Shown piece by piece: positions 14,179 to 36,168 of a stretch of 64,000 nucleotides of DNA. The notes beneath the pieces were generated by a model. It saw only the letters and a program-made list of their open reading frames with translations, was not told the DNA's origin and searched no databases. How positions within the stretch are numbered: position 1 is the first letter of the stretch; every line of letters starts with the position of its first letter. The DNA comes from a virus, in the IMG/VR virus record IMGVR_UViG_3300007735_000800, positions 32,001 to 96,000 of that record; one strand, given 5' to 3'. Made by a program: the position numbers and the translations under genes.

Positions 14179-14186
14179 TATTTATG
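14179..14186 (-). promoter_or_regulatory. Late promoter (CATAAATA) upstream of uvsW
   Basis: TATTTATG on the plus strand, overlapping the uvsY stop codon. Confidence 0.55.
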
Positions 14187-14619
14187 ATATTCCGTTCATC
14201 ATTTTATTCCATTCGATGGCAGATTTAATCATAAAATTTCTGTTATTTAATGATTTAATAAACTCTTCAACCATCTTGAGTTTTACTTCAGTCACAGCCA
14301 ATTTTGATTTTAGTTCTATTACTTTTACATCTGCTTCAACAAATTGCTCAACATCGCTTTTTAGCAAAGTAAGATCCGAAGGCTCTTCCCCCCAGGCTTC
14401 CAATTCTTCTTTGGAGGCTTTACCGGTATAAATTTTCCATTTCCTCAATTTTAAAACAGCCAAGTCGTTTTGGTGTTTTGTCAAAAGTAATTTGACATCT
14501 GCAAGTATTGTTAAATACTTGGAGTGTATTTGAGGTATCTTAAGAGACTCTATACCTAACTCTGTAGAGTCTATTTGAGAGTCTTTAGTAATAAGTTCTT
14601 TAAGGTTATCTAGATTCAT
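14182..14619 (-). CDS. uvsY: UvsY recombination mediator
   Basis: DSQIDSTELGIESLKIPQIHSKY, LRKWKIYTGKA and NRNFMIKSAIEW motifs. Confidence 0.93.
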   Translation of the reverse strand: MNLDNLKELITKDSQIDSTELGIESLKIPQIHSKYLTILADVKLLLTKHQNDLAVLKLRKWKIYTGKASKEELEAWGEEPSDLTLLKSDVEQFVEADVKVIELKSKLAVTEVKLKMVEEFIKSLNNRNFMIKSAIEWNKMMNGIS

Positions 14620-14680: not shown

Positions 14681-14708
14681 TTGACAATTATATAAAGTAA
14701 TCTATAAT
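14681..14708 (+). promoter_or_regulatory. Sigma70-type promoter for the glycosylation island (TTGACA-N16-TATAAT)
   Basis: Consensus hexamers; GAGGA SD and ATG at 14726. Confidence 0.8.
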
Positions 14709-14725
14709 TTATTTGAGGACTATAC

Positions 14726-15361
14726 ATGCAGATCGACTTACGTGAAATTCCAGTTGTTTGGATAAATCTGGATTCGGCAAAAAAGAATGCTGAAACCATG
14801 GAAGAAAGATTTAAAAAGTTTGGATTTAAAAATACACATAGAAAATCCGGACTAATAATTCCACCTCCACCCAATACAGATAAAAGCATTGCTCATTTTA
14901 GGGGATGTGGACAATCACATATAGACATTTTAGATGATGAAAATTATTCAACACCACTTCTTGTTTTGGAGGATGATGTTGAGTTTATTGAAAATTTTAA
15001 TCCTGTAATAGATATACCAGAAGAATCTGATGGAATTTATCTTGGTGTATCAAGTGGAAATCTTTTTTACAAATCATGTAGGAAAGATCAAAATTACCTT
15101 CGAATAGCAGGAATATTGGCTGCACATGCCATATTGTATGTAACCCCTAGATTCAGAGCAGCGATGTCTGAAGCTGGTAAATATTGTTTATATGAAATAA
15201 ATCAACCATGGGATGTTGGAACTGCAGCTATACAAGTAAATTATAACGTGTATACACCCAATATACCACAAATATTTCAATGTGATGATAGAGAAAATGC
15301 CAATAAATGGCAAAGACTCACGGATAAACCTCTGGAAGATAGAAAGTTTATTTTTCCATGA
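14726..15361 (+). CDS. Glycosyltransferase, GT25-like
   Basis: WINLD start motif, GCGQSH and LVLEDD (DxD-like). Confidence 0.7.
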   Translation: MQIDLREIPVVWINLDSAKKNAETMEERFKKFGFKNTHRKSGLIIPPPPNTDKSIAHFRGCGQSHIDILDDENYSTPLLVLEDDVEFIENFNPVIDIPEESDGIYLGVSSGNLFYKSCRKDQNYLRIAGILAAHAILYVTPRFRAAMSEAGKYCLYEINQPWDVGTAAIQVNYNVYTPNIPQIFQCDDRENANKWQRLTDKPLEDRKFIFP

Positions 15362-16185
15362 TAACATTTAATTCACTGGGCAGATTCGGAAAACTTGGAA
15401 ACCAGATGTTTCAGTACGCAGCATTAATTGGTCTAGCAGAAAAAAATGGATATGAGTACGGAATTCCATATTCCAACAGGGAATGGGGAATTAGTGCATG
15501 GTATGATTGTAAATTATTTTTACCGGATTTATTTAACATTACTGCCAAAGACTCAAGCTCAATTGACAACAAACACAAATTTAGATATGATCAATTAATT
15601 TATAATGAGAAGTTTTTTTCATTGCCGGATAATATAGATATTTTAGGGTATTATCAAAGTGAAAAATATTTTACACACTGCAAAGATAAAATTTTAAAAG
15701 AGTTTTCTTTTAAAAATGATGATTTGGTAAACAAAACAAAAGAAGAATTTGATAACAAAAAATTTATAGGTCTTCACATTAGACGTGGTGATTATTTAAA
15801 AATACCGCACATACATAAAACATGTAATCAAGAATATTACATTAAATCAATAAATAAAATTTTAGATAATGTAAAAGATGAACATTTTTTATATGTTTTT
15901 AGTGATGACATAGAATGGTGTAAACACAATTTAAATTTTAATATTAAAACTTTTTTTGATGATTCTCCAGAATCTGAAGAAAAATACTATACAAACCAGG
16001 AAAAAACTTTAATAAAAATGAGTTTATGCAATCATTTTATTTGCGGTAATAGTTCTTTTAGTTGGTGGGGATCTTATCTTATCAAAAATTCAAATAAAAT
16101 TGTCTGCATGCCAAATCAATGGTTTGGAGAAGGTATAAAAGAATCTTGGTCTGACATTTATTATGATGGGGTTTCAATAATATGA
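15358..16185 (+). CDS. Alpha-1,2-fucosyl/colitosyltransferase, GT11
   Basis: GKLGNQMFQYA, GYYQSEKYF, LHIRRGDY, FSDDIEWCK and NSSFSWWG, the GT11 signature motifs. Confidence 0.9.
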   Translation: MITFNSLGRFGKLGNQMFQYAALIGLAEKNGYEYGIPYSNREWGISAWYDCKLFLPDLFNITAKDSSSIDNKHKFRYDQLIYNEKFFSLPDNIDILGYYQSEKYFTHCKDKILKEFSFKNDDLVNKTKEEFDNKKFIGLHIRRGDYLKIPHIHKTCNQEYYIKSINKILDNVKDEHFLYVFSDDIEWCKHNLNFNIKTFFDDSPESEEKYYTNQEKTLIKMSLCNHFICGNSSFSWWGSYLIKNSNKIVCMPNQWFGEGIKESWSDIYYDGVSII

Positions 16186-17003
16186 ATAAGCTTCACATCA
16201 TAACAGATGCATTTAACAACAGTTCTTGCTTAAATTATCTTCCAAAAACTTTTAAATGGGTATTCAATACATATCCTTCTGACAATGGTCCAGTTGTATA
16301 TTTTGATTCTTCAATATTTACTAAAATAAATGATGAATATTCTGGAACAAGATATGGTTGGTTAGGAGAATCTTCAGAAATTATTGCACCATTGATAATG
16401 GGAGTTACATCAAATAAAGATGTATTAAAATTAAGATATAAAAAAATTTTTACAAATGACAGAAGAATTGTCAGTATAGATCCAACTTTTTTTGTTTATA
16501 ATCCCCCAGCATCAAACATGCCGTGGGTAAAAGAAAGAGAAGTATTTACAAAAACAAAATTGTGTTCATACATCACAAGCTTCAAGCAATTCACGTCAGG
16601 TCACATTAAAAGAATGGAATTGTTTGAAAAATTAAAAGATAATCCAAAATTCAAAGATCATATATTTGGAAGAGATTATAGATTTATTGAAAACAAAATT
16701 GATGGGCTTAAGGATTATATGTTTTCTATAGTTGTAGAAAATAGTATCTATCCAAAGTATTATACAGAAAAAATTACTGATTGTTTTGCCACAGGAACAA
16801 TACCAATATATTATGGGGATGAGTCTATATGTGAAGATTTTGATAGATCTGGAATTATATTTTTAAATGAACTTGAATCATTTGATGATTTAAATGAAGA
16901 GTTATATAAAAATAAATTAAGTAGTGCAAAAAATAATTTAATAAAATTAAACTCCATGAAATCAGCTGATGATTACATTTACGAAAACATATTAAATGAT
17001 TAA
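16182..17003 (+). CDS. GT10-like (alpha-1,3/4-fucosyltransferase-like) glycosyltransferase
   Basis: YMFSIVVENS....YYTEKITDCFATGTIPIYYG matches the alpha-1,3-FucT motif. Confidence 0.75.
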   Translation: MNKLHIITDAFNNSSCLNYLPKTFKWVFNTYPSDNGPVVYFDSSIFTKINDEYSGTRYGWLGESSEIIAPLIMGVTSNKDVLKLRYKKIFTNDRRIVSIDPTFFVYNPPASNMPWVKEREVFTKTKLCSYITSFKQFTSGHIKRMELFEKLKDNPKFKDHIFGRDYRFIENKIDGLKDYMFSIVVENSIYPKYYTEKITDCFATGTIPIYYGDESICEDFDRSGIIFLNELESFDDLNEELYKNKLSSAKNNLIKLNSMKSADDYIYENILND

Positions 17004-17865
17004 ATTACATATATCAAATTTTTGGCCATCGTTTGATTACACTAATAATTTTTTTGTAGAATTATTTAAAGATATTTACACACAAGATATAATTTTTACA
17101 AATATCAACGATTGCAATTTATGTTTGATTGCGGATTGCAATATTCCACCAGAATTAGATAAAACAAAAACAAAAACCATTTGTTTTACCGGAGAACCAA
17201 AAAAAATAGATTTTTCTTTATGTGATTATTATCTTACTTTTGATCCCGATTCCGACAATAATATAAGACTGCCTTTATGGTATATTTACATTAATTTTTA
17301 TAATTTAAATAATCAAAAAAATCCTATTCCAGCAGTAAAACCAAGTGAGATTGACGATAATATCTGGCTAAATAAATTAAAAAATAATTTTTGTATAGCT
17401 CCTTTTTCTGTTGCTACTAAAGCTAGAATTGAATTTTATAATTTATTAAATTACTATAAACCAACATATGGATTTGGCCTACCTTTTGGTAACGGAGATC
17501 AAGATAGAAATGAATTAAAAAAATATGACGTAATTTCTAATTTTAAATTTTGCATGACTTTTGAAAATACTTGCAAACAGGGATATGTTACTGAAAAAAT
17601 TTTACAAGCTAAAACAGCCGGATGTATCCCAATATATTGGGGAGATGAATATGTTACAAAAGATTTTAATCCAAATAGTTTTATATATGTAAATAAATTT
17701 AAATCTTTTAATGAATGCTTAGAGTATGTAAAATACGTAGATAACAATTTTGAAGAATACAATAAATATTGTAAAGAACCATTATTTTTAAATGATATTG
17801 AAACAAATTTAAATATAATAAAAACAAAAATTAAAAATAAATTAGCCGATAAGATAGGAAAATAA
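16996..17865 (+). CDS. GT10 alpha-1,3/4-fucosyltransferase-like glycosyltransferase
   Basis: FKFCMTFENT..QGYVTEKILQAKTAGCIPIYWG and FNPNSFI motifs. Confidence 0.85.
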   Translation: MIKLHISNFWPSFDYTNNFFVELFKDIYTQDIIFTNINDCNLCLIADCNIPPELDKTKTKTICFTGEPKKIDFSLCDYYLTFDPDSDNNIRLPLWYIYINFYNLNNQKNPIPAVKPSEIDDNIWLNKLKNNFCIAPFSVATKARIEFYNLLNYYKPTYGFGLPFGNGDQDRNELKKYDVISNFKFCMTFENTCKQGYVTEKILQAKTAGCIPIYWGDEYVTKDFNPNSFIYVNKFKSFNECLEYVKYVDNNFEEYNKYCKEPLFLNDIETNLNIIKTKIKNKLADKIGK

Positions 17866-17870
17866 TTATT

Positions 17871-18401
17871 ATGGAACATTTTTATAAAAATTTGGGAGAA
17901 GATTGGTTTTCATATTCTGAATTATACAATAATATTGTAAAAACACACGGAAGTGGAAGTCATTTTGTTGAAGTTGGATCTTGGAAGGGGAGAAGTTCTG
18001 CTTATATGGCAGTAGAAATTAATAATTCTGGTAAAAATATTAAATTTGATTGTGTTGATATTTGGGAAAAATCAGAAGAATACAGTGAAGAAAATTTATA
18101 TGAACAGTTTTTAACAAATATTAAACCAGTAAAACATATTATAAATCCAATTAAAATGAAATCAGTGGATGCTTCTAAATTATATGAAGATAACAGTTTA
18201 GATTTTGTTTTTATTGATGCTTGTCATTTTTATGAATGTGTAAAAGAGGATTTAGAAGCTTGGTATCCAAAAGTAAAATTAAATGGAATTATTGCTGGTC
18301 ACGATTTTCATTCAGAAAATATTAGAAAAGCAGTAGAAGAACAATTTCCAGAATTTTATTTTAGTCAACAACAAAATATTTGGTTGAAAACAAAAAAATA
18401 A
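17871..18401 (+). CDS. Class I SAM-dependent methyltransferase (Methyltransf_24-like)
   Basis: VEVGSWKGRS, LDFVFIDA.H.YE.VKEDL.AW and GIIAGHD motifs. Confidence 0.88.
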   Translation: MEHFYKNLGEDWFSYSELYNNIVKTHGSGSHFVEVGSWKGRSSAYMAVEINNSGKNIKFDCVDIWEKSEEYSEENLYEQFLTNIKPVKHIINPIKMKSVDASKLYEDNSLDFVFIDACHFYECVKEDLEAWYPKVKLNGIIAGHDFHSENIRKAVEEQFPEFYFSQQQNIWLKTKK

Positions 18402-18421
18402 AAAATTATGTCTTAAATAAT

Positions 18422-19153
18422 ATGATTAAAACAAAAATTTTAAGTATACCAAATTCAAATAGAAAAGACGATATAAAAAAACAAATGGAAAAAAACCATA
18501 TTTGTTTTGATTTTTTTGATGCAATTACTCCAAAAGATTTTTATTTAACACAAGAAAAAAATATTACAAAAATAATATTAAAAGACTCAATATATTTTAT
18601 AAATTCTGAAGTTGTAAATCCAATTATAAAAAGAAATTACATGAGAGTTGGAGAGGTTGCATGTGCAATATCACATATTAAAATATGTGAAAACCTTTTA
18701 AATAATGAAGAAGATGATTATTATCTAGTATTAGAAGACGATACAGTATGTTTAAAAGATATTGAAAAACTTTATTTACTTAAAAATTACATTAAAAATA
18801 ATATTAATAAACAAGATTTAATCTATCTTTTAAATTATTCTCCATCTTTTCAACAAAGAAAACCCTGGTATTATGATTTATGTGAAAAAATAGAAGATCA
18901 TTTTTATGTTTTAAAAAACAATCCAAGTATCTTTTTAGAAGCAACTAATGCATTTATTATTAATAAAAATTTTTGTAAAAAATATTTAGAAATAGTGAAA
19001 AATATCGGACTGATTGGTCCAGCAGATAGCGCGTTAATACATATGTTTGCCAATAAACATATATCTGTTTCAATAACAGATTTAGATTATTTTTCTCCCA
19101 TATTTGAAAATAATCCAAGTTTTGTACATCAAACAGAAAAAATATCAATATAA
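18422..19153 (+). CDS. Glycosyltransferase, GT25 family
   Basis: FDFFDAI, GEVACAISH and YYLVLEDD motifs; ATG at 18422 is the likely start. Confidence 0.8.
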   Translation: MIKTKILSIPNSNRKDDIKKQMEKNHICFDFFDAITPKDFYLTQEKNITKIILKDSIYFINSEVVNPIIKRNYMRVGEVACAISHIKICENLLNNEEDDYYLVLEDDTVCLKDIEKLYLLKNYIKNNINKQDLIYLLNYSPSFQQRKPWYYDLCEKIEDHFYVLKNNPSIFLEATNAFIINKNFCKKYLEIVKNIGLIGPADSALIHMFANKHISVSITDLDYFSPIFENNPSFVHQTEKISI

Positions 19154-19193
19154 TATTTGATTTATTTAAAATATTATTAATAATTCATCTTCA

Positions 19194-20108
19194 ATGAAGA
19201 ACATACATTTTTATAATTTATTTCATAATGGTGATTTACATTATTCTAGAGAATTTGTAAAAGATATTATTAATAAAGTAAAAAATAAATATAAAATTGG
19301 TTATTATATTAAAAAATTAGAATCATCATCATTAAATGATATTGATATTGAATTTAAAAATGTAGATAAAAATAATATTTTGTCTACATTTTTAATTTCA
19401 AATTGCCAAAAAATTATAAAAGAAGAACAAAATGATATTTTTGTAAATACATGGATAGGTACAAATAATGCCAAATATGTAAGCAAACATAAATGTTCTT
19501 TAAAAAGTAATTATTTGCTTTATAAAGATATTTTTGCTTTTTTAGATATACCAATAGATTCAATTTCAAATTATATACCATCTATAGATTATTCAAAATT
19601 TAAAATAGAATCTATAGATAAATTTTTTAATAACAATAAACAAAATTTTTATTGCCTAATATCAAATGGACCGGTACACTCTGGTCAAGCTAATTGTTTT
19701 GATTTATCAAATATTATAAACATTCTTAGTAAAAAATATTTAAATATTGGTTTTATTTTAACCCATAAAACAAATTTGGAACATTCATCAAATATTTTTT
19801 ATACAAATGATATAATAGGTTTACAAAAAGATTTAAATGAAATTTCATATTTATCACTAAAATGTAAAATTATTTTTGGTAGGGCTAGTGGGCCTTATTG
19901 CTTCTCACATGTTAAAGAGAACATGTTTGATATAGATAAAACAATAATAGCCAATTCAAATTTTATAGAAGAGGGTCTATGGGCAATGGAAGATGATTTT
20001 GAAAACAAAAAACATTGTAAACAAATTTGGTTGAATACAGCTTCTGATGAAGAATTAATGAATATAATTCAAAATGAAATAGATGTTAAATTGGAAAGTA
20101 AAATATGA
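19194..20108 (+). CDS. Hypothetical protein of the glycosylation island (possible GT-B fold)
   Basis: 304-aa ORF in the operon; HNGDLHYSR and IFGRASGPYCF segments loosely recall GT9-like proteins. Confidence 0.45.
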   Translation: MKNIHFYNLFHNGDLHYSREFVKDIINKVKNKYKIGYYIKKLESSSLNDIDIEFKNVDKNNILSTFLISNCQKIIKEEQNDIFVNTWIGTNNAKYVSKHKCSLKSNYLLYKDIFAFLDIPIDSISNYIPSIDYSKFKIESIDKFFNNNKQNFYCLISNGPVHSGQANCFDLSNIINILSKKYLNIGFILTHKTNLEHSSNIFYTNDIIGLQKDLNEISYLSLKCKIIFGRASGPYCFSHVKENMFDIDKTIIANSNFIEEGLWAMEDDFENKKHCKQIWLNTASDEELMNIIQNEIDVKLESKI

Positions 20109-20470
20109 GCATATCAAATAATATTGAACAAATAATAAAAGAAACAGTCTCTAAAACCTTAGAGAAAAAAAACATACCCGAAAATCCATCTGATTATTAT
20201 TTTACAGACAATATAGCTGAGACTATCGAAAAACTCTGCATACTTCATATAAGAACATGGTTTTTAGAGGACATGGCTGGAGTTTGTAAAACAGATTCTG
20301 AGTTAGCAGATATAAAAAGAAAAGTAGACATTTGCTTCAAACAAAAAAGGCCAGCTTTAATTCAAGCAATAAATAGAATGGTAGATGCTGCTATATTAGA
20401 TGGAAAAAGTTTAAAAGAAGATTCTGTAAAAATTTATAAGGGATTTGTTAATGATTCAGCTACCAATTAA
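20105..20470 (+). CDS. Small helical protein, DUF4254-like
   Basis: DNIAETIEKLCILHIRTWFLED...KRKVD..F.QKRPALIQAIN pattern. Confidence 0.5.
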   Translation: MSISNNIEQIIKETVSKTLEKKNIPENPSDYYFTDNIAETIEKLCILHIRTWFLEDMAGVCKTDSELADIKRKVDICFKQKRPALIQAINRMVDAAILDGKSLKEDSVKIYKGFVNDSATN

Positions 20471-21620
20471 ACTAGTTAAAGATACGATTTCATCGTCAGA
20501 AATAGATTTATTGTGTGACTGGTTAAAAACCTATCCACAATTAACTAAAGGCAAATTAACTGAACAATTTGAAGCAGAGTTTGCAAATTGGACTGGTACA
20601 AAATATTCTGTTTTTGTTAATTCAGGATCATCAGCAAACTTAGCTATGATCTATGCATTAAAAGTATCAAATAAACTAAAAAATGAAAAAATTGTTGTCC
20701 CATGTGTTTCTTGGGTTACCACGGTAAGTCCAATTATTCAATTTGGAATGAAACCAATTTTATGTGAAACAGATAAAGATAGTTTGGGCATTGACATAAA
20801 TCATTTTGAAAAAATTTGTAAAGAAGAATCTCCCGCCTGTTTGTGCCTAGTACATGTTTTAGGATTTCCAAACAAGATGAAAGAGATTAAAGAAATTTGT
20901 AAAAAATACGATGTAATACTATTAGAAGATTCTTGTGAAAGTGTTGGTACAGAATATGAAGGAAAAAAAACGGGTACCTTTGGGCTGATGTCTTCTTTTT
21001 CAACATATTTTGGTCATCATTTTTCTACAATAGAAGGTGGTTTTATTTGCACTGATGACTTTGAATTATATGAAGTATTAAAATCAATCAGATCGCATGG
21101 TTGGAGTAGAGATCTATCTGAACAAACTAAAAACCGCCTGCAGTCAGAGCATCAAATTGATGATTTCAGAAACCTATACACTTTTTATTTTCCCGGTTTT
21201 AATTTAAGAGCAACAGATGTTCAAGCTTTTTTGGGATTGAATCAATTAAAGTCTTTGAATGAAAAAAATAATAAAAGATATAAAAATTTATTGACATATC
21301 ACTCAAATATAAAAAATAGTTATTGGAAAATTAAGTTTAATAATTATGTAAGTAATTTTGCTTATCCAATAATACACCCATTAAAGAATAAAATTGTAGA
21401 AAAATTAAAAGAAAATCAAATAGAGTGCAGACCATTAATTTGTGGTAGTATGTCCAGACAACCATTTTTTTATCAAAGGTATGGTATTGTTGAACACAAT
21501 TTTTCAGATATAATTCATGATTATGGATTATATTTACCCAATAATCCAGATATGACCGAAGAAGAAGTATTGTATATTTCAAATACAGTTAACTCAATAA
21601 CAAAAAATATAAATGAATAA
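20451..21620 (+). CDS. colD: PLP-dependent DegT-family enzyme, ColD-like GDP-4-keto-6-deoxymannose 3-dehydratase
   Basis: NSGSSANL, LLEDSCES and GFNLR motifs. The active-site segment STYFGHHFSTIEGG has His where aminotransferases have the Schiff-base Lys. Confidence 0.72.
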   Translation: MIQLPIKLVKDTISSSEIDLLCDWLKTYPQLTKGKLTEQFEAEFANWTGTKYSVFVNSGSSANLAMIYALKVSNKLKNEKIVVPCVSWVTTVSPIIQFGMKPILCETDKDSLGIDINHFEKICKEESPACLCLVHVLGFPNKMKEIKEICKKYDVILLEDSCESVGTEYEGKKTGTFGLMSSFSTYFGHHFSTIEGGFICTDDFELYEVLKSIRSHGWSRDLSEQTKNRLQSEHQIDDFRNLYTFYFPGFNLRATDVQAFLGLNQLKSLNEKNNKRYKNLLTYHSNIKNSYWKIKFNNYVSNFAYPIIHPLKNKIVEKLKENQIECRPLICGSMSRQPFFYQRYGIVEHNFSDIIHDYGLYLPNNPDMTEEEVLYISNTVNSITKNINE

Positions 21621-22557
21621 AAACTCTAAAATATTTGTTGCGGGACATAAAGGACTTGTTGGTTCTGCTTTGATGAGAAAACTCCATGAAAATGGATTTA
21701 CAAACTTAATAACAAAAACTAAAGATGAATTGGATTTGAGAAATCAAATTGACGTTAAGTATTTCTTCGATAAAGAGAGGCCAGATTACGTATTTCTAAG
21801 TGCCGCAAAGGTCGGAGGAATTGGCTGGAATAAGAATTGTCCAGCAGAATTTATATACGATAATTTGCAAATACAAAACAATATAATTCACAGCGCGTAT
21901 TTAAATGGAGTCAAAAAACTTTTGTTTCTTGGATCGGCGTGCATTTATCCCAAGATTACACCTCAACCAATTAAAGAAGAATATTTGATGACGGATCAGC
22001 TTGAACCAACAAATGAAGGATATGCTTTATCAAAAATTGTTGGTTTAAAAATGTGTCAATACTACACAAAACAATATGGATTCAATGCCATATCATTGAT
22101 GCCAGCTAATTTGTATGGAATCAATGATAATTTTAATGTAGAAAAATGCCACGTTATACCAGCATTGATACGTAAATTTATTGATGCAAAAGAAAATAAT
22201 GAATCATCTGTGGTGTGTTTTGGTGATGGTACTCCGACACGAGAATTTTTGTTTTCTGACGATCTTGCTGATGCATGTTTATTCTTAATGAAAAATTATA
22301 ATTCTCCAGAAATAATTAACGTTGGTTCAGGTATGGATGTAACCATAAAAGAACTAGCGGAAACAATAAAAAGTAAAATAGGATTTAATGGAGAAATTAT
22401 TTGGGATACATCAAAACCAAATGGAACTTCACTGAGAAAAATATGTAATAAAAAAATAAATTCTATGGGCTGGAACGCCACAACCAAACTAGAAGATGGA
22501 ATATCGAAAACAATAGATTGGTATTTGTCAAATAGAAAAAATTATTATAGAAATTAA
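21613..22557 (+). CDS. fcl: GDP-L-fucose synthase / ColC-type epimerase-reductase
   Basis: GHKGLVGS, AAKVGGI, GSACIYP, YALSK, NLYG.ND and HVIPALI motifs. Confidence 0.93.
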   Translation: MNKNSKIFVAGHKGLVGSALMRKLHENGFTNLITKTKDELDLRNQIDVKYFFDKERPDYVFLSAAKVGGIGWNKNCPAEFIYDNLQIQNNIIHSAYLNGVKKLLFLGSACIYPKITPQPIKEEYLMTDQLEPTNEGYALSKIVGLKMCQYYTKQYGFNAISLMPANLYGINDNFNVEKCHVIPALIRKFIDAKENNESSVVCFGDGTPTREFLFSDDLADACLFLMKNYNSPEIINVGSGMDVTIKELAETIKSKIGFNGEIIWDTSKPNGTSLRKICNKKINSMGWNATTKLEDGISKTIDWYLSNRKNYYRN

Positions 22558-22585
22558 TTGAATACTTTAAAATATAAAATATACT
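22558..22585 (+). promoter_or_regulatory. Sigma70-type promoter, leaderless geometry (TTGAAT-N16-TATACT)
   Basis: ATG of gmd lies 6 nt after the -10 hexamer; AT-rich context lowers specificity. Confidence 0.55.
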
Positions 22586-22591
22586 ACTAAT

Positions 22592-23572
22592 ATGAATAAA
22601 AAAGCTTTAATTATTGGTGCAAACGGCCAAGATGCGTCATATTTGGCTGAATTATTAATTGAAAAACAATATGTAGTTCACGGTACAATCAGAAGAAATT
22701 CTGTACCAGAATCTCAGACAACCAGAATTCAACATTTGCACGATAATAATTTAATTACCCTGCATTATGCAGATCTTACGGACCCAATTAGCATTGAAAG
22801 CGTAATTCAAAAAATACAACCAGATGAAATATATCATTTAGCTGCACAGTCTCATGTTCAAATTTCTTTTGATTTACCTCACTATACTTTAGAAGTAAAT
22901 GGTTGTGGAACGCTGTCTGTATTAGAAGCAGTCAGGCGGTTTTCACCACATTCTAAAGTTTACCATGCAGCAACATCTGAGATGTTTGGAAATTCAAAAG
23001 ACCCAGATGGTTACCAGAGAGAAACTACACCAATGGTTCCGGTGAGCCCATATGGATGCGCTAAACTATATGCACATACTTTATGCAGAAATTATAGCCA
23101 GGCTTATAATATTTTTGCTTGCTCTGGAATTCTTTTTAATCACGAATCTCCAAGAAGAGGGATAAACTTTGTTACAAATAAAGTAGCAAATCAAGCAGTT
23201 AAAATTAAATTAGGTTTGGCGGACAAATTAGTTCTTGGGAATCTTGAAGCCAAACGTGATTGGGGGCATGCAAAGGATTATGTAGAAGCAATGTGGCTTA
23301 TGTTACAAAAACCAACTCCAGAAAGTTATGTTATTGCTACTGGAGAAACTAGAACTGTAAGAGAAATGACACTGTACATTTTTAATAAATTAAATTTAAA
23401 TTTTGACAAATATGTGTCTACAGATGAAAAATATTGTAGACCAGAGGAATTACACTATTTAAAAGGTGATGCAACAAAAGCTTATACAGAATTAGGATGG
23501 AAACCAAAAATAAAATTTGAAACTATGATGGATGAAATGGTAGATTTTTGGATAAAAAATTATAAAAAATAA
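22592..23572 (+). CDS. gmd: GDP-mannose 4,6-dehydratase
   Basis: GANGQDASYLAELL, LAAQSHV.ISF, ATSEMFG, SPYGCAKLY, GILFNHESPRRG.NFVT.K and RDWGHAKDYV motifs. Confidence 0.96.
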   Translation: MNKKALIIGANGQDASYLAELLIEKQYVVHGTIRRNSVPESQTTRIQHLHDNNLITLHYADLTDPISIESVIQKIQPDEIYHLAAQSHVQISFDLPHYTLEVNGCGTLSVLEAVRRFSPHSKVYHAATSEMFGNSKDPDGYQRETTPMVPVSPYGCAKLYAHTLCRNYSQAYNIFACSGILFNHESPRRGINFVTNKVANQAVKIKLGLADKLVLGNLEAKRDWGHAKDYVEAMWLMLQKPTPESYVIATGETRTVREMTLYIFNKLNLNFDKYVSTDEKYCRPEELHYLKGDATKAYTELGWKPKIKFETMMDEMVDFWIKNYKK

Positions 23573-23581
23573 TTAATAACT

Positions 23582-24250
23582 ATGAATATTAAACAATTTA
23601 TATTTGACAATTCACCAATAAATAAATGTGGGCAAAGATGTCCAATTATTTTAGAAGCTGGAACAGCTCATGGGTTTGATACGGTTGAATTTGCTAAAAC
23701 ATATCCAGATGGTGTAATTTATGGAATTGAACCTATTACAGCGATGTATGATCATACATACATGTTAACAAAATCTTTTAATAATGTAAAACTATTTAAA
23801 AAAGCATTATCCGATAAAAATGGCAGCGCGGAAATGTATGTTTCATATTATTATGGTAGCCCAACAGGTTCTAGTTCGATACTGGAACCAAAAGACCATG
23901 TACATTTACATCCGGAAATAACATTTAACAATAAAGAAATTGTTGAAACAATTACGCTCGATGATTTTGTGGAAGAACAAAACATATCACATATTGATTT
24001 TATGTGGTTAGATTTGCAGGGATATGAACCAATTGTATTAAATAAATCAATAAAAACTCTTAAAAAGAGTAGGTATTTACACTGCGAAGTTACTATGATT
24101 GAATATTATAAAGATAATATAAAATATCCAGAGTTTAAAAAATTTTTAAATGATAATAATTTTGAAGTTTTAGATGAAAGTGAAATTTTTACTCCAAATG
24201 GAATTAAAAAAGCTGGAAATGTTTTGTTTAAAAATAAATCATATAATTAA
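23582..24250 (+). CDS. FkbM-family methyltransferase
   Basis: LEAGTAHG, GIEP, TITLDDF and IDFMWLDLQGYE motifs. Confidence 0.85.
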   Translation: MNIKQFIFDNSPINKCGQRCPIILEAGTAHGFDTVEFAKTYPDGVIYGIEPITAMYDHTYMLTKSFNNVKLFKKALSDKNGSAEMYVSYYYGSPTGSSSILEPKDHVHLHPEITFNNKEIVETITLDDFVEEQNISHIDFMWLDLQGYEPIVLNKSIKTLKKSRYLHCEVTMIEYYKDNIKYPEFKKFLNDNNFEVLDESEIFTPNGIKKAGNVLFKNKSYN

Positions 24251-24261
24251 GGTAAAATAAA

Positions 24262-24897
24262 ATGTATTATTCTCAGTATAATCAAGATAAAATTTTAAAT
24301 ACTAGAATTTTTAAAAATAAAAAAAATGGATTTTTTATAGATATAGGTGCACATGATGGAATAACATATTCCAATTCATATTTTTTTGAAAAAGAATTGG
24401 AATGGACAGGTATATGTGTGGAACCAAATCCATCCGTATTTAAACAATTACAAAAAAATAGAAAATGTACTTTAATAAACAAACCTGCTTGGATAGAAAA
24501 TAAAAAAGAAGTATTTTTTACAATTACAGGACATTCTGAAATGTTGAGTGGATTATACGACACATATCATCCAAAACATCTAAAAAGAATAAAGTCGGAA
24601 ATAGATGATTTAAATCAAAAATTTGAAATCACTGAAGTTGAATGTTTTGATTTAAATGAATATTTAATAAAAAATTCTATAAATAATATTGATTTTATTA
24701 GTTTAGACACCGAAGGAAGTGAATTTAAAATTTTAAAAAATATTGATTTTTCTCAAATTTCTATAAAAGTTATTGTAATAGAAATACCATATGATCAAAA
24801 TGAAGTAATAAATTTTTTAGAAAATAAAAATTTTTATCTATATGCATATGCTCAAAATTCAGATTTAATTTTTGTTAATAACAGCTATAAATTTTAA
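24262..24897 (+). CDS. FkbM-family methyltransferase
   Basis: YSQYNQD, FFIDIGAHDG...SNS, GICVEPNP and IDFISLDTEGSE motifs. Confidence 0.88.
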   Translation: MYYSQYNQDKILNTRIFKNKKNGFFIDIGAHDGITYSNSYFFEKELEWTGICVEPNPSVFKQLQKNRKCTLINKPAWIENKKEVFFTITGHSEMLSGLYDTYHPKHLKRIKSEIDDLNQKFEITEVECFDLNEYLIKNSINNIDFISLDTEGSEFKILKNIDFSQISIKVIVIEIPYDQNEVINFLENKNFYLYAYAQNSDLIFVNNSYKF

Positions 24898-24924: not shown

Positions 24925-24952
24925 TTGACAATTAATTTTTTTGTGTTAAAAT
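24925..24952 (+). promoter_or_regulatory. Sigma70-type promoter for gp55 (TTGACA-N16-TAAAAT with extended TG)
   Basis: GTG start 6 nt after the -10 hexamer, no SD. Confidence 0.75.
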
Positions 24953-24958: not shown

Positions 24959-25528
24959 GTGAAAAAACCAAAGAAAAAAAAATCTAAACCGTCTGATGCT
25001 GATTATGTAGACAATCAGGCGTTATATGATGCTTTGGTAGAATTTAAAAAGAAGATAAGAGAATCTGAAAACAGCGGAAAGAAAAAACCAAAACTTCCCG
25101 ATTTTATAGGCGAGTGCATACTAAAAATTGCATCTCGCCTTTCTTATCGACCAAATTTTGCCAACTATCCTTATAGAGAAGAAATGGTATCTGACGCAGT
25201 TTTAAATTGTATTACTTATATTGAAAATTTTGATCCAAAACTCTCAACCAGTCCATTTGGTTATCTAACGCAAATATGTTGGTTTTCATTCGTTAGGATT
25301 ATAAACAAAGAGAAAAAAGAAAAATATGTTCAATACAAGTTTGCAGAACAAAAAAATAATAAAGATTTTCAAAATTGGTTTAATGAAGTATATGCTGGTA
25401 TTGACATTGGAAGAAAAGATTTCTTTGGTTTGACCGATTCGGATATGGAACGGTTTGATAAAATGACTGAACCTAAGGTAAAGAAGAAAAGAAAAAGAAA
25501 AGTAAAAGAAGACATGTTTGAACTATGA
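24959..25528 (+). CDS. gp55: Late transcription sigma factor
   Basis: YVDNQALY, FIGECILKIA.RLSYRPNF.NY.YREEMVSDA and PFGYLTQICWFSF.R.I.KEKK motifs. Confidence 0.95.
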   Translation: MKKPKKKKSKPSDADYVDNQALYDALVEFKKKIRESENSGKKKPKLPDFIGECILKIASRLSYRPNFANYPYREEMVSDAVLNCITYIENFDPKLSTSPFGYLTQICWFSFVRIINKEKKEKYVQYKFAEQKNNKDFQNWFNEVYAGIDIGRKDFFGLTDSDMERFDKMTEPKVKKKRKRKVKEDMFEL

Positions 25529-26571
25529 AAGCCGTAATATTGAATGACACCCATTTTGGATACAAAGCAGATTCTCCGATAGTTTTAGAATACTTTCTAT
25601 CCTTCTTTGAAAGGCAGTTGTTTCCTTACCTAAAAGAAAACAAAATTACAACAATATTTCACCTAGGTGATGTATTTGACCGAAGAAAATACATCAACTT
25701 CAAAACCCTAAATGAAGTAAGAACCAGGTTCTTTGAACCTTTGCGTGATATGGGAATAAAGGTTATTGCAATTTGTGGTAACCATGATACGTATTACAGA
25801 AACAACAATAGAGTAAATTCACTGGATGAACTTATTTCTTATTATGGTAACTGGGAAATTTATTCTGAGCCAACAGAAATAAAAACTAGTTCGGGGTGTG
25901 TTGCCCTGGTTCCTTGGATAAATCCTGAAAATCAAGAAAAATCTGCTGACTTTATAATAAACACAACCTGTCCGGTTTTATTTGGTCATTTGGAATTATT
26001 GGGATTTCAAACTATTCGTGGTACATTTGTGGATCAAGGTTATGACCCAAGATATTTTAACAAATTTGAATGTGTTCTTTCTGGGCATTATCACATCAAG
26101 TCTAGTCGTGACAATATCCATTATTTGGGCACGCAATATCAGATGGCTTTCTCGGACGTTTGGGAGTCAAAGGGGTTCCACGTATTTGACTTCAAGGATC
26201 GTACTTTATCGTTTATTGAAAATCCAAGGAAGCTTTTCCACACGTTTGATTATAATGAAGACAACCCGGAAAAGATCGATTATCAGAACTTCAAAGATTG
26301 TTATGTCAAAATTTTTATCAAGAAGCGCACTAAGGCTGCAGCTTTTGAAAAGTACATTGATAAATTCTATGAAGCAGGTGTGGCAGAATTGGCAATAACG
26401 GACGAGGTATCGACAAATCCAGAATTGGTGGCAGTAGATGTGCACAAGGATACATTGCAGCTTCTTCATGAAGAAATTGAAACAATAAACGACAAATCTG
26501 TTGATAAAAAAATACTTGCAAAGATCATAGATGAGGCTTATAATTCTGCATTGTCAAAGGATGAAGAGTGA
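25525..26571 (+). CDS. gp47: Recombination endonuclease subunit (Mre11/SbcD-like)
   Basis: DTHFG, HLGDVFDRRK, GNHD, GHLE and SGHYH metallophosphoesterase motifs. Confidence 0.95.
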   Translation: MKAVILNDTHFGYKADSPIVLEYFLSFFERQLFPYLKENKITTIFHLGDVFDRRKYINFKTLNEVRTRFFEPLRDMGIKVIAICGNHDTYYRNNNRVNSLDELISYYGNWEIYSEPTEIKTSSGCVALVPWINPENQEKSADFIINTTCPVLFGHLELLGFQTIRGTFVDQGYDPRYFNKFECVLSGHYHIKSSRDNIHYLGTQYQMAFSDVWESKGFHVFDFKDRTLSFIENPRKLFHTFDYNEDNPEKIDYQNFKDCYVKIFIKKRTKAAAFEKYIDKFYEAGVAELAITDEVSTNPELVAVDVHKDTLQLLHEEIETINDKSVDKKILAKIIDEAYNSALSKDEE

Positions 26572-28289
26572 TTGAATTTTTAAAAGTCAGATTTAAAAAC
26601 TTTGGTTCGTTTGGAAACAACTTTTCAGAAATTGATTTAAATAGCAGAAAGACAACGTTGGTCACGGGAACCAATGGTCATGGTAAATCTTTTGCTTTGT
26701 TGGATTCTCTTTGTTTTGGTTTGTTTGGCAAGCCATTCCGACCAATAAATATACCACAGTTGATAAATACAGTTAATGGAAAAAACTGTTTAGTTGAAAT
26801 TGAATTTAACAGATCTAACTCTCATTATTTGGTTCGTCGTGGATTGGCTCCCAAAATTTTTGAAATTCATAAGGATGGTAAGCTTTTAGATCAAAATGCC
26901 AAGTCCAAAGATTATCAAGAAATGTTTGAGGAACAGATCCTGGGATTTGATTATTCTGCCTTTAAACAGGTCGTAATCCTCGGCAAATCCAACTTCATAC
27001 CATTCATGCAGCTGACTCCCATGGAGCGCAGGAAGATCATAGAAGGACTCCTAGAGCTCGATATACTGGCTGACATGAATGTATATGTAAAGGGGCAGTT
27101 GGGTTCTTTGAAAGTCGATATTGCTGAACAGAACAGCCTTTTAAAGATATCCCATGAAAAGATAAAATCCCAAAAAGAATTTATAGAACAAGTGAAAACT
27201 AGTAATGCTGGAGATATAAAAATTCTTGAGGGAAGAATTAAAGAATACAAAGATCAAATTGGTGAAGACAATAGAACACTAAAAACTTTACTTGAGGATC
27301 ATTCCGATAAATCCACGCAGATCTCAGATTTAAAAAAGAAAATTGCATCTCTTAAAGATGTTCCTGGTATGCTAATCAAATTGGAAACATTAAAAATTTC
27401 ATTGCTTGATGACATAAAGGCACTGGAAGAGAATGCAACTTGTAAGTGTTGCTTACAGGTTCTTCCAGTTGAACAAAAGCAAAAGCACATTCAAGAAAAA
27501 AGAACAAAGTCAAAAGAATGTTTTGATGCTTTAAAGGTTGCGACAAAGAAGAATCAAGATTTAGAGCAGTACAATAAAAATTTGGAAAAAATGTCGCAAG
27601 AAGCGGAAATATTAGTAAATGACATTAATGGCATCAAATATAGAATTGGAAATGGTGAATCCAATATCAAAGTTTTGGAGAAAGACATAAAGGAAAAACA
27701 AGCAGCCAACAACCTGACTACTTTACTAGCCAGTTTGGCTGATTCGGAAAGTAAAAAAGATGAAATTGCAAAACAAGTTGAAAAACTCATTCAAGAACAA
27801 ATTCATCACGATGTTGTATATGATATCCTCAAAGATGGCGGGCTCAAGAGCCGCATTATCAAACATTATGTTCCCATCATCAATGGACTCGTCAACAAGT
27901 TCCTCGGAAAACTTAATCTCTATGTTGATTTCACCATCGATGAGGAATTCAAGGAAACAATCAAGTCTCGATATAGAGATGCATTCTCATATTCCTCTTT
28001 CTCTGAGGGAGAGAAACAGCGTATCGATTTGGCCATACTGCTGACTTGGCGTGAAGTGGCCAAGATGAAGAATAGCCTAAACTGCAATCTATTGATTTTT
28101 GATGAGATATTGGATTCGTCTTTGGATTCTTCGGGAACCGAGTCTTTTTTGAAGATATTGAATAAAATGAAAAATAAGTGTTCTATATTCATTATAAGCC
28201 ATAAGGCAGATTCTTTAGTCGATAAATTTGATCAATCATTACAATTTGAAAAGAAAAACAACTTTTCAAAGATAAAAGTAAACATATAA
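26568..28289 (+). CDS. gp46: Recombination ATPase subunit (Rad50/SbcC-like)
   Basis: Walker A GTNGHGKS, zinc hook CKCC, signature FSEGEKQRID and Walker B LIFDE. Confidence 0.95.
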   Translation: MIEFLKVRFKNFGSFGNNFSEIDLNSRKTTLVTGTNGHGKSFALLDSLCFGLFGKPFRPINIPQLINTVNGKNCLVEIEFNRSNSHYLVRRGLAPKIFEIHKDGKLLDQNAKSKDYQEMFEEQILGFDYSAFKQVVILGKSNFIPFMQLTPMERRKIIEGLLELDILADMNVYVKGQLGSLKVDIAEQNSLLKISHEKIKSQKEFIEQVKTSNAGDIKILEGRIKEYKDQIGEDNRTLKTLLEDHSDKSTQISDLKKKIASLKDVPGMLIKLETLKISLLDDIKALEENATCKCCLQVLPVEQKQKHIQEKRTKSKECFDALKVATKKNQDLEQYNKNLEKMSQEAEILVNDINGIKYRIGNGESNIKVLEKDIKEKQAANNLTTLLASLADSESKKDEIAKQVEKLIQEQIHHDVVYDILKDGGLKSRIIKHYVPIINGLVNKFLGKLNLYVDFTIDEEFKETIKSRYRDAFSYSSFSEGEKQRIDLAILLTWREVAKMKNSLNCNLLIFDEILDSSLDSSGTESFLKILNKMKNKCSIFIISHKADSLVDKFDQSLQFEKKNNFSKIKVNI

Positions 28290-28777: not shown

Positions 28778-29449
28778 ATGACAACTGTGACTAAAATGCG
28801 TCTCTCAAAAGAGACTTTGACTATACTTAAAAACTTTTCCTCCATCAATTCTAATATCTTGATTAATCCGGGAAGCATTATCAAGACAAAATCTGCAAGC
28901 AGCAACATATATGCAGAAGCAAAAATTGAGGAAGAATTTGATGTATCGGTTCCCATCTGGGATCTAAATAAGTTTTTGGCAGTGGTTAGCATGTTTGCAA
29001 ACCCAGATCTTGAATTTACTGACAAGTATGTTGACATCTCAAATGGTAGATCATATGTCAGATACCATTATTCAAATCCAAAATTGCTATCGGTTCCAAC
29101 CAGAGAAATAAAGATACCAGATGCAATAATAAAATTTGACCTAAATGAAGAAAATCTCAACGAAATGCTGAGAGCTGCAAGCATTCTTCAGGTTGGCGAT
29201 ATTCAGATAACAGCAAAAGATGGTGTTTTGAGCATTGTTGTCGATGATTCTGGAAACAGCAGTTCAAATAGCTTTTCAATGATATTGGATGATAACTACA
29301 GCGGTCCAGATTACAGCGGTTCTTTCAACATCAATCACATCAAGTTTGTCCCTGGATCATATAAAGTACACCTTACGAATACCGTTGTCGCAAAGTTTGA
29401 ACATGAATCTGGCAATTTGTTTTACTACATTGCAATAAACAAGGGATAA
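28778..29449 (+). CDS. gp45: Sliding clamp
   Basis: MRLSKETLTILKNFSSINSNILI, IWDLNKFL and FVPGSY motifs. Confidence 0.95.
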   Translation: MTTVTKMRLSKETLTILKNFSSINSNILINPGSIIKTKSASSNIYAEAKIEEEFDVSVPIWDLNKFLAVVSMFANPDLEFTDKYVDISNGRSYVRYHYSNPKLLSVPTREIKIPDAIIKFDLNEENLNEMLRAASILQVGDIQITAKDGVLSIVVDDSGNSSSNSFSMILDDNYSGPDYSGSFNINHIKFVPGSYKVHLTNTVVAKFEHESGNLFYYIAINKG

Positions 29450-29450
29450 A

Positions 29451-30392
29451 ATGACAGAAATAAACAATTTGATTTGGGTCGAAAAATATCGACCCAAGAC
29501 TCTGTCTGATTGCATTCTTTCTACGGATTTGACCATCATATTCAACGGTATGGTCAAAGATGGCAAAATTCCCAACATGTTATTCTATGGCAAACCTGGA
29601 ACAGGCAAAACCACTGTGGCAAAGGCGCTTGCCAATGATCTGGGTTTAGATTGCATGATGATTAACTGCTCCGAGGAGAATGGTATTGATACCCTCAGAG
29701 TCAAGATAAGAGAATATGCATCCACGGTTTCTCTCACGGGAAATGGCAAAGTCATTATTTTGGATGAATTTGATTATGCTACAAAAGGCATTCAAACAGG
29801 TTTGCGTGGAGCTATAGAGGAGTTTGCAGATAATTGCAGATTTATAATCACATGCAATTATAAAAACAGGGTGATAGACCCATTGCACTCAAGATGCACT
29901 GGAGTAGATTTTAGCATACCCAATTCAGAAAAGGCTGCGATTGCCACCAGGATTCTGCAAAGGATAGAATCTATACTTAATTTTGAAAATGTTCCATATG
30001 AAAAACAAGTTTTGGCAAATGTGGTTAAAAAATATTTTCCAGATATTCGCAGAATCATCAATGAACTTCAAAAGTATTCTTCTTCTGGAAAGATTGATGT
30101 TGGCGTATTGGGACAAAACAGTTCAGATTCATTCAAAGAACTATTGGGGTACATGAAAACAAAGGATTTTGCATCCTGCAGAAAATGGGTTATTCAAAAT
30201 ATAGATCTCAATACAAGCGAGTTTTTTAAACGTCTATACAATGAGCTTTATACAGCTCTTAAACCAAGTTCAATTCCTGCAGCAATTTTGATTATAGCCG
30301 AGTATCAGTACAAATCTGCATTTGCAGCGGATCATGAAATCAATACTATGGCCATGTTGGTACAGATAATGATGGATTGTGAGTTTGCCTAA
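29451..30392 (+). CDS. gp44: Clamp loader large subunit
   Basis: WVEKYRPKT, GKPGTGKT, IILDEFD and PLHSRC motifs. Confidence 0.96.
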   Translation: MTEINNLIWVEKYRPKTLSDCILSTDLTIIFNGMVKDGKIPNMLFYGKPGTGKTTVAKALANDLGLDCMMINCSEENGIDTLRVKIREYASTVSLTGNGKVIILDEFDYATKGIQTGLRGAIEEFADNCRFIITCNYKNRVIDPLHSRCTGVDFSIPNSEKAAIATRILQRIESILNFENVPYEKQVLANVVKKYFPDIRRIINELQKYSSSGKIDVGVLGQNSSDSFKELLGYMKTKDFASCRKWVIQNIDLNTSEFFKRLYNELYTALKPSSIPAAILIIAEYQYKSAFAADHEINTMAMLVQIMMDCEFA

Positions 30393-30781
30393 TGGAACTA
30401 TTTGATTTTATCAACAACATCAATTACCATAAAAAGCCAGTCCTAGATGAGGACGAAAAGGCAGATAAATTTTATCTGCCTTTTATGGTAAATAAATATT
30501 ATTCTTTTTTTGCAGATACCATATTTTATGCAAATGAGATGAATTGCAACTGGGAGTTAGATAAAAAACTTCAACATGATTTTTATTTGAATGGAATAAG
30601 GAAAAAGAAAAGATTTAATGCTTGGGTTAAGAAAGATACCGAAGACGATATTGAAACTATAAAAAAAGCATATAATTACACAGAGTCTAAAGCTCAAGAA
30701 GTGCTAAATATACTTGGACCCGATGGTGTGAAAAAGTTAAAACTTTTTATGCTTAAAGGTGGAACTAATAGTAAAGAGTGA
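30392..30781 (+). CDS. gp62: Clamp loader small subunit
   Basis: YLPFMVN, Y.NEMN, Q.DFYLNGIRKKKRF and Y.Y...KA.E.L..L motifs. Confidence 0.93.
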   Translation: MELFDFINNINYHKKPVLDEDEKADKFYLPFMVNKYYSFFADTIFYANEMNCNWELDKKLQHDFYLNGIRKKKRFNAWVKKDTEDDIETIKKAYNYTESKAQEVLNILGPDGVKKLKLFMLKGGTNSKE

Positions 30782-31212
30782 GTGATATGTCGGAAACATC
30801 AGATAAAATTTTTAATAATGTTGGCGTTCATATAAAACTTTTGGATCCAGAAGATTTTATGGTTGTCAGGGAAACCCTATCGAGAATAGGGGTATCACCC
30901 AAAGGAAAAAAAGTTTTATATCAATCCTGCCATTTAATACATAAAAATGAAGTTTATATCATAGCCCATTTTAAGGAATTGTTTTCCTTGGATGGGCTTC
31001 CTTCCAATGTATCCGAAGAAGATTTAAAAAGAAGAAATGCAATCATATCTCTATTAGAGGAGTGGGAACTCTTAGATGTTGTTGACAAAGAAAAAATTAA
31101 AGATAAGATGCAAATCAGCGGTCTTAAAATTATAAAACATGAAGAAAAGAATGACTGGCAATTAATACCAAAATTTAATCCAGGCACTCTACGTAAATTT
31201 TTTAATAGTTGA
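30778..31212 (+). CDS. regA: Translational repressor RegA
   Basis: DFMVVRETLSRIGV, LYQSCHLIHK and YI.HFKELF.LDG motifs. Confidence 0.95.
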   Translation: MSDMSETSDKIFNNVGVHIKLLDPEDFMVVRETLSRIGVSPKGKKVLYQSCHLIHKNEVYIIAHFKELFSLDGLPSNVSEEDLKRRNAIISLLEEWELLDVVDKEKIKDKMQISGLKIIKHEEKNDWQLIPKFNPGTLRKFFNS

Positions 31213-32500: not shown

Positions 32501-32911
32501 ATGGAGATTTTTATGGCCGAAAACTACGACATAATTGTTGTAAAAGGCGATACAGCTAGATGGTCTTCCTTCTTTTATAGCCTAACAGGAGGAAATACCT
32601 TCGATTTTAGTGGATGTACCATGTACATGCAAGTAAGATCTGGATATTATGCTGAACCCCTTTTGGCCGGCTACACACAATACATTTCCGCAGGAGCCTC
32701 TTTAGATTATCCTAAAGGATTAACCGGAGGAATATCTGCAGGTGCTACTGGAGGAACTGTATATTTTTGCATAGGTTCTTCTCAGTCAAATCAACTCACA
32801 GCAGATAGAATGTGCAAATATGATGTAAAAGTAGAACATCCCAGTTTAATGGACAAATACACAATCATTAGAGGAAATGTTCAAGTATTGGGCAACGTAA
32901 CTAACATATAA
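32501..32911 (+). CDS. Virion accessory / fibre-adaptor-like protein
   Basis: YDI.V.KGDT, D.SG.T.YMQVR, YDVKV and I.RG.V pattern typical of BppU-like/adaptor domains. Confidence 0.5.
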
Positions 32912-36161: not shown

Positions 36162-36168
36162 TTAAGAC

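Follow-up and report, generated by a model that had tools for sequence, protein, structure and literature searches.

We analysed a 64,000-nt window, bases 32001-96000 of the 126,277-bp record IMGVR_UViG_3300007735_000800 in the IMG/VR virus database (estimated completeness 70%), and in particular three adjacent genes that encode a predicted ColD-type dehydratase, a reductase of the GDP-fucose-synthase (GFS) family and a GDP-mannose 4,6-dehydratase (Gmd). Judged from sequence, these three genes probably form a working GDP-colitose module fed by GDP-mannose of the host, which would probably supply GDP-fucose as well. Gene identity, gene order, conservation and catalytic residues are established by the data below, and from these we infer every activity, product and acceptor. 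An earlier note, made by reading the letters of this DNA, had proposed a complete GDP-L-colitose pathway in a phage, and its coordinates for the three open reading frames (ORFs), all on the plus strand, proved to be correct (Table 1).

The first gene is an ORF of the DegT family (Pfam DegT_DnrJ_EryC1, PF01041, E 5.7e-67), which opens at TTG 20445. The start chosen in the earlier note, ATG 20451, is the likelier one, because AAGGGA stands six bases 5′ to it and the alignments of relatives begin there, at about residue 3-8. Positions 20994-21035 translate to SFSTYFGHHFSTIE, and the full motif in the translation of the ORF is STYFGHHFSTIEGG. Reference genes were taken from Escherichia coli O55:H7 CB9615 (ColD, ColC, Gmd, Fcl and a glycosyltransferase of family GT11) and O157:H7 Sakai (PerA). 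In a MAFFT alignment with O55 ColD and O157 PerA, His191 of the window protein (counted from the TTG) coincides with His188 of ColD and Lys183 of PerA. The Schiff-base position of this DegT enzyme is therefore occupied by His and not by Lys, as had been read from the sequence for the residue that otherwise binds pyridoxal phosphate (PLP). HMMER alignments with wild-type ColD (SHH) and its variants H188N (SNH), H188K (SKH) and S187N/H188K (NKH) gave the same register, in which the first His of the window motif (GHH) is residue 188; since crystal forms of both the wild type and the point mutants place it there, this His is no chance reading. Moreover, His191 is invariant among 40 aligned viral and bacterial relatives. 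The second His is replaced by Thr in eight or nine of the best 80 IMG/VR relatives, hence only the first one appears essential to the family.

When the PDB was searched by HMMER, ColD (2gms) ranked first (E 5.9e-65, 223 bits), followed by E1 (1.1e-38, 136 bits) and, lower, the perosamine synthases (about 2e-27, 100 bits); structures of ColD are PDB 2gms, 2r0t, 3b8x and 3gr9. An AlphaFold2 model of the dehydratase had a mean predicted local distance difference test (pLDDT) score of 95, and its top 10 Foldseek matches were all ColD, with a template-modelling (TM) score of 0.88. PF01041, the model and Foldseek agree on the DegT/aspartate-aminotransferase type-I fold, and by sequence and modelled fold alike ColD is the nearest characterised protein. 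In the MAFFT alignment the ColD residues D159, E162, S183, R219, N248, R250 and R331 are all kept in the window protein; apart from His188, we assume the roles of these ColD residues from conservation. The E1 iron-sulphur ligands (CYCAPGCDNTC) fall in a gap of the window protein alignment, as they do in ColD. His in place of the Lys of aminotransferases, and absence of the four-Cys motif of E1/SpnQ, define ColD (PMC8987622). The window protein has the equivalent of His188, carries no [2Fe-2S] Cys motif and is linked to Gmd; the reading of the His as the hallmark of a 3-dehydratase is thus supported, with ColD as the closest characterised protein and the E1 motif missing.

The neighbouring genes fit this assignment. 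Gmd scored far better against plant, human and bacterial GDP-mannose dehydratases (GMDs) in the PDB (E 1e-97, 330 bits) than against GDP-heptose dehydratase (E 1.6e-34, 123 bits), and with the family models and the closest solved relatives in agreement its sequence identifies it as a canonical Gmd, of the GDP-mannose and not the heptose type. It lies 1 kb 3′ of the ColD-type gene in the same gene run, in which the three genes are tightly packed. The gene between them matches Pfam Epimerase (E 7.9e-60) and PDB 1bsv, the E. coli GDP-fucose synthase (E 6.5e-94), and it conserves both the Ser107/Tyr136/Lys140 triad and the Cys109/His179 epimerisation pair of 1bsv, which places it among the short-chain dehydrogenases/reductases (SDRs) of the GFS family. 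Adjacency to Gmd and to a GDP-fucose-synthase homolog was therefore rightly noted, as both are directly downstream and the catalytic residues of the reductase are intact. Beyond Gmd, the reductase and ColD, the 126-kb record holds no further SDR or DegT protein and no cupin epimerase, and the reductase is the sole candidate for the ColC step. No NTP_transferase (ManC) was found in the 126-kb record either, so the pathway would start from host GDP-mannose; it can be called complete, as had been claimed, only from GDP-mannose onward.

In the pathway that we propose, Gmd would oxidise and dehydrate host GDP-mannose to GDP-4-keto-6-deoxy-D-mannose. The ColD-type enzyme would form a ketimine with pyridoxamine phosphate (PMP), His191 would take the C4′ proton, and the 3-OH would be expelled; hydrolysis would then release GDP-4-keto-3,6-dideoxy-D-mannose and ammonia, and L-glutamate would restore PMP. 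Due to this regeneration by L-glutamate, no Fe-S cluster or reductase partner would be needed. The single Fcl-type SDR would next epimerise C5 and reduce C4 with NAD(P)H. Fucose synthase epimerises C5 and then delivers hydride to C4, which leads to the L-galacto configuration, and the same stereochemistry on the 3-deoxy substrate would yield GDP-L-colitose, as judged from how GFS and ColC are known to work. Any Gmd product that escapes ColD would be converted by the same Fcl-type enzyme to GDP-L-fucose, and both donors, GDP-colitose and GDP-fucose, are probably made; the suggestion that the reductase could also make GDP-fucose is probably right, since it is of the Fcl type and not a ColC orthologue. 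Neighbouring GT11 and GT10 enzymes may transfer these L-sugars, and methyltransferases may O-methylate the glycan. The chemistry is ordinary and known from bacteria, and the phage version draws on divergent enzyme lineages with an Fcl-type last step.

Several findings weigh against a colitose module. For the dehydratase, Ser187 of ColD is replaced by Gly in the window protein and in most relatives, and identity to E. coli ColD is only 35%. In a tree of 143 rows, rooted on PerA and made by a quick method, it falls in a separate 95-row clade (Shimodaira-Hasegawa-like approximate likelihood ratio test 99) and not in the 14-row clade of O55 ColD, whose members mostly have ColC-type partners; no characterised member of the mostly viral clade was found. 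Orthology with the characterised E. coli clade is thus not what the tree gives, and the dehydratase is a ColD by its sequence features but not by clade. For Gmd, the score on TIGR01472 (393 bits) is just under the equivalog cut-off of 415. For the reductase, identity is 47% to E. coli Fcl versus 36% to O55 ColC, and on NF047922, the Fcl equivalog model, it scored 437 bits, which is below the cut-off of 500 and outside that equivalog; the same model gave 551 and 539 bits for E. coli Fcl, 420 for the protein of the cultured Synechococcus phage ACG-2014f and 304 for E. coli ColC. Finally, the window reductase and its phage relatives lie outside the ColC clade in the reductase tree.

That tree comprised 47 Fcl-like proteins. 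The window protein, its counterpart in ACG-2014f and two E. coli references apart, all were encoded no more than 8-10 kb away from a ColD-type gene. The ColC clade (support 100/98) consists of E. coli ColC together with seven bacterial genes linked to ColD, and the window reductase belongs to a large group with E. coli Fcl, in which about 30 bacterial reductases linked to ColD are also found. A tree in which the phage and ColC clades were constrained to one group was 13 log-likelihood units worse, with a borderline p-value of 0.051 in the approximately unbiased (AU) test, for a grouping chosen after the tree had been seen. From its sequence the reductase is not a ColC by descent. Since the tree has ColD partners both in the ColC clade and in the Fcl group, two kinds of reductase partner ColD-type genes, and that of the phage is the Fcl type. 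The Gmd-ColD-ColC route of the earlier note is accordingly kept for Gmd and the ColD-type enzyme, and has to be amended for the reductase, which is Fcl-type and not an orthologue of E. coli ColC.

In the mostly viral clade of the dehydratase, about 70 of the 95 rows are viral, with Ca. Fonsibacter, Pelagibacteraceae, Nocardioides and Opitutae among the bacterial sisters. Bacterial ColD-type proteins reach at best 49-50% identity to the window dehydratase, and bacterial relatives of this ColD type also occur in ColD-Gmd-Fcl-type clusters. One 'bacterial' ColD-type gene, on contig CAXGOB010000083.1 of a Saprospiraceae metagenome-assembled genome (MAG), was nested within the viral clade beside IMG/VR sequences, and the contig, 20 kb long, may be a piece of phage DNA that was binned with the MAG. 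Separately, Pelagibacteraceae single-cell genomes (SAR11) carry ColD-type genes 40-45% identical to that of the window, which, unlike most other relatives, lack any Gmd or Fcl-like gene up to 8 kb away; these genes may draw on another source of substrate or belong to another pathway.

With an Fcl-type reductase outside the ColC clade, the pathway could also branch at the Gmd product, in which case Gmd and the reductase would make GDP-L-fucose, and the product of the ColD-type enzyme would not be handled by the reductase but end as another 3,6-dideoxy or 4-keto, 'colitose-like' sugar, for example if a host enzyme reduced it or if C5 were not epimerised. We regard this as unlikely. Campylobacter jejuni HS:5/HS:11 offers a parallel in its GDP-3,6-dideoxy-heptose pathway, where a GDP-4-keto-6-deoxy sugar is the substrate of a ColD-like C3-dehydratase that depends on PLP and glutamate, and such C3-dehydratases feed separate epimerases and reductases that lead to several 3,6-dideoxy isomers (PMC10440746). 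That system shares the ColD-like C3-dehydratase with the window, but its substrate is a heptose, its 4,6-dehydratase is dedicated to heptose, and its C5-epimerase and C4-reductase are separate enzymes (PMC10440746). The three methyltransferases of the gene island around the trio also point to further tailoring. Against branching, the record has no additional SDR or DegT gene and no cupin epimerase, many bacterial and viral ColD-type genes are paired with just such an Fcl-type gene, and the stereochemistry of fucose synthase on the 3-deoxy substrate would predict colitose, as argued above from mechanism. Moreover, a sister relation to ColC narrowly escapes rejection in the AU test.

A GDP-colitose module also accounts better for the dehydratase than two other enzyme types do. 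An ordinary aminotransferase resembling GDP-perosamine synthase, with GDP-fucose and an amino sugar as products, is very improbable: relatives such as that of ACG-2014f are so annotated and perosamine synthase has the same family fold (TM 0.82), but the Schiff-base Lys of PerA/RfbE is an invariant His here, the PDB scores differ by 223 to 100 bits in favour of ColD, and PerA does not have the insertion that ColD-type proteins share after the HGW.R motif. Nor does the annotation discriminate, as authentic E. coli ColD carries the same generic name and NCBIfam has no ColD model. Hardly any credence is due to a 3-dehydrase of E1/SpnQ type, acting with an Fe-S cluster and a reductase partner on a CDP- or dTDP-sugar. 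JGI names relatives 'CDP-6-deoxy-D-xylo-4-hexulose-3-dehydrase', and the best NCBIfam model is RfbH (NF011936), but the score of 208 bits is far under the cut-off of 423, as it is for authentic E. coli ColD (263 bits), the cysteine cluster of E1 is aligned with a gap, and the island has no CDP-glucose pathway gene or E3-like reductase, its adjacent dehydratase being Gmd.

These labels have concealed the enzymes more generally. RefSeq names ColD of E. coli O55:H7 CB9615, an enzyme characterised by both biochemistry and structure, only 'DegT/DnrJ/EryC1/StrS family aminotransferase' and its ColC 'GDP-L-fucose synthase family protein', and NCBIfam has neither a ColD nor a ColC model; because of the missing models and the generic label of E. 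coli's own ColD, phage copies go unrecognised. In ACG-2014f, Gmd, an Fcl-type reductase, a GHH dehydratase and a GT11-like gene stand in a row and are annotated as 'nucleotide-sugar epimerase' (twice), 'aminotransferase' and 'glycosyltransferase'. The trio of this phage (NC_026927 gp223-225) is as in the window, and its dehydratase is 35% identical to that of the window. A pattern scan found His-type relatives in at least 561 IMG/VR viral contigs, and over 100 proteins from metagenomes match the window dehydratase at 63-80% identity. Among the best 80 of these IMG/VR relatives, a radius of 6 kb included Gmd in 51 cases, an Fcl/ColC-like gene in 52 and GT11 in 25.

The window is DNA of an uncultured T4-like phage, with T4-like core genes on both sides of the island (Table 1). 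Its gp46 shares only about 41% identity with that of cyanomyoviruses, and a megablast search of the trio and 20 kb of core genes against 50,697 phage records gave no match at the DNA level, so by sequence comparison the phage is without a close sequenced isolate. The pathway is indeed phage-borne, as had been proposed: core genes flank it, and the island is found in the same place in 11 related IMG/VR contigs, with the trio 73-84% identical. Misassembly, by which bacterial DNA would have been joined to the phage, might be suspected from the low G+C content of the island (21-31%, below the flanks), but it is scarcely credible given the same island between uvsY and gp55-gp47-gp46 in those 11 independent contigs from different samples, the 49-50% identity to the nearest bacterial ColD-type protein as against 63-80% for more than 100 metagenomic relatives, and the trio in cultured cyanophage ACG-2014f.

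Table 1. Predicted genes and sites in the window (positions of the 64,000-nt stretch; GT, glycosyltransferase family)
Feature	Position	Strand	Details
UvsW-like helicase	12675-14174	-	T4-like core gene
UvsY	14182-14619	-	T4-like core gene
Putative promoter, sigma-70 consensus TTGACA-16-TATAAT	14681-14708	+	12/12 match, 18 nt before first island gene
Weak GT25-like glycosyltransferase	14726-15361	+	first island gene; phrog_24091 E 6.5e-37; phrog_2835 glucosyltransferase E 3.9e-5
GT11 (alpha-1,2-fucosyl/colitosyl-transferase family)	15358-16185	+	PF01531 E 3.9e-33
Tandem GT10-like (alpha-1,3/4-fucosyltransferase family)	16182-17003, 16996-17865	+	PF00852 E 1.3e-8, 2.7e-19; FucT_N E 9.4e-8
Methyltransf_24-type methyltransferase	17871-18401	+	PF13578 E 2.9e-19
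GT25 (lipopolysaccharide/lipooligosaccharide-type) glycosyltransferase	18380-19153	+	PF01755 E 4.4e-14
GT9-like (GT-B fold) 304-aa protein and 121-aa protein	19194-20470	+	virus-only clusters (Atlas)
ColD-type PMP-dependent GDP-4-keto-6-deoxy-D-mannose 3-dehydratase (predicted)	20451-21620	+	389 aa from ATG
Catalytic His codon	21015-21017	+	H191 from TTG, H189 from ATG; ColD His188, PerA Lys183
GDP-fucose-synthase-family (Fcl-type) epimerase/4-reductase	21613-22557	+	8-nt overlap with ColD stop
GDP-mannose 4,6-dehydratase (Gmd)	22592-23572	+	PF16363 (GDP_Man_Dehyd) E 2.1e-116, 389.5 bits, cut-off 27
Two FkbM-family methyltransferases	23582-24250, 24262-24897	+	PF05050 E 1.4e-17, 2.7e-20
gp55, late sigma factor	24959-25528		T4-like core gene
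gp47/gp46-like nuclease subunits	25525-28289		T4-like core genes
gp45, gp44, gp62, RegA	28778-31212		T4-like core genes

The island between uvsY and gp55 consists of 13 tightly packed genes on one strand (14726-24897, about 10 kb), of which the trio are the tenth to twelfth, and its G+C content compares with 30-45% elsewhere in the window. The first gene matched PF01755 below the cut-off (E 0.017). The window GT11 shares 31% identity with its counterpart in the colitose cluster of E. coli O55, a GT11 gene that RefSeq annotates in O55:H7 CB9615 as an alpha-1,2-fucosyltransferase and that we take to be the colitosyltransferase WbgN. The 304-aa and 121-aa proteins 5′ of the dehydratase have no Pfam match and stand side by side in all close relatives; the former has a TM score of 0.70 to a GT9 cluster (Atlas), while the latter, whose gene overlaps the ColD start by 26 nt, weakly resembles DUF4254 and is present in 22 of the 80 best viral ColD loci. 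Most of the closest relatives lack the pair of FkbM genes and have gp55 within about 90 nt of Gmd, and by this comparison of sequences the pair is a recent addition to the island.

The putative sigma-70 promoter before the first island gene is a perfect consensus. Just 5′ of gp55, positions 24925-24952 give an 11/12 sigma-70 match with an extended -10 TG. The T4 late promoter TATAAATA is not above chance in frequency and has no copy upstream of the island. This arrangement points to early transcription of the island and of gp55 by the host polymerase, which favours neither a host envelope nor a virion acceptor.

Three fucosyltransferase-family enzymes in the island fit, as far as family membership goes, a donor of the GDP-L-6-deoxyhexose type. 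The GT9 and GT25 genes are of families typical of the lipooligosaccharide core and suit extension of the lipid A-core of the host before flipping by MsbA; no Wzx, Wzy, WaaL or priming transferase was found in the island. A GT2 glycosyltransferase gene (31220-32461) is located directly 5′ of a collagen-repeat tail-fibre gene, with virion structural proteins and a protein with a concanavalin-like lectin domain beyond it (32911-38945). Pfam found GT2 only and no tetratricopeptide repeat in this protein, and the gene is a candidate link from glycosylation to the virion. By analogy with chloroviruses, a GT2 next to collagen-like fibre genes would suit glycosylation of the virion. Host envelope and virion protein are about equally likely as acceptors. 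DNA as the target of glycosylation was considered and is without support, as the 126-kb record had no match to thymidylate-synthase/dCMP-hydroxymethylase or Tet_JBP, a weak negative because the record is 70% complete and the Tet control matched nothing.

Compared with known systems, the window uses the same three enzyme families and the same GDP-mannose logic as the colitose pathway of E. coli O55:H7/O111 (Gmd, ColD = WbdK, ColC = WbdJ), and the O55 cluster likewise has His for the Schiff-base Lys, no Fe-S motif and a GT11 gene. Unlike O55/O111, the window has no ManB/ManC, Wzx, Wzy or priming transferase, its reductase is Fcl-type and its dehydratase comes from another clade; moreover, the module belongs to a lytic-type T4-like phage, in which it stands beside GT10, GT25 and GT9-like transferases and methyltransferases. 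Chlorovirus PBCV-1 has its own GMD and GMER and a virus-encoded glycosylation of its capsid. Like the window, it combines synthesis of a GDP-6-deoxyhexose with cytoplasmic glycosyltransferases and sugar methyltransferases, but it is a virus of eukaryotes without a 3-deoxygenation step, and its acceptor is proven to be the capsid protein. T4-like cyanophages share Gmd, Fcl and fucosyltransferase-family genes with the window; in S-SCSM1, P-SSM2 and S-SSM7 these were read as genes for 'LPS / cell-wall modification', LPS being lipopolysaccharide, and the published account is one of fucose only (PMC9602691).

Colitose is regarded as an uncommon sugar, confined to the O-antigens of a few Gram-negative pathogens and marine bacteria. 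In the literature that we searched there was no report of a phage-encoded ColD or of phage colitose. As virology, a probable phage colitose module that is widespread and mislabelled is of moderate interest. The divergent ColD and Fcl-type enzymes would be new candidates for making dideoxy-sugar nucleotides. More speculatively, the phage might use both donors, GDP-colitose and GDP-fucose, with its methyltransferases and its GT9-like, GT25, GT10 and GT11 transferases to build an O-methylated, Lewis-like dideoxy-sugar glycan on fibres or capsid of the virion and not on host LPS; we hold this only as a tentative possibility. If true, it would be a bacteriophage counterpart of the autonomous glycosylation of chloroviruses, and the mostly viral ColD-type clade would mark a widespread, unrecognised system of virion glycosylation in aquatic phages. 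Should the colitose module itself be real, synthesis of 3,6-dideoxy sugars would be a common auxiliary function of viruses in lakes and oceans that is hidden under 'aminotransferase/epimerase' labels. A new reading would follow for the 'LPS genes' of T4-like cyanophages and of their relatives, and there would be a testable handle on what phage glycan islands decorate, be it the host surface, for superinfection exclusion or escape from grazing, or the virion.

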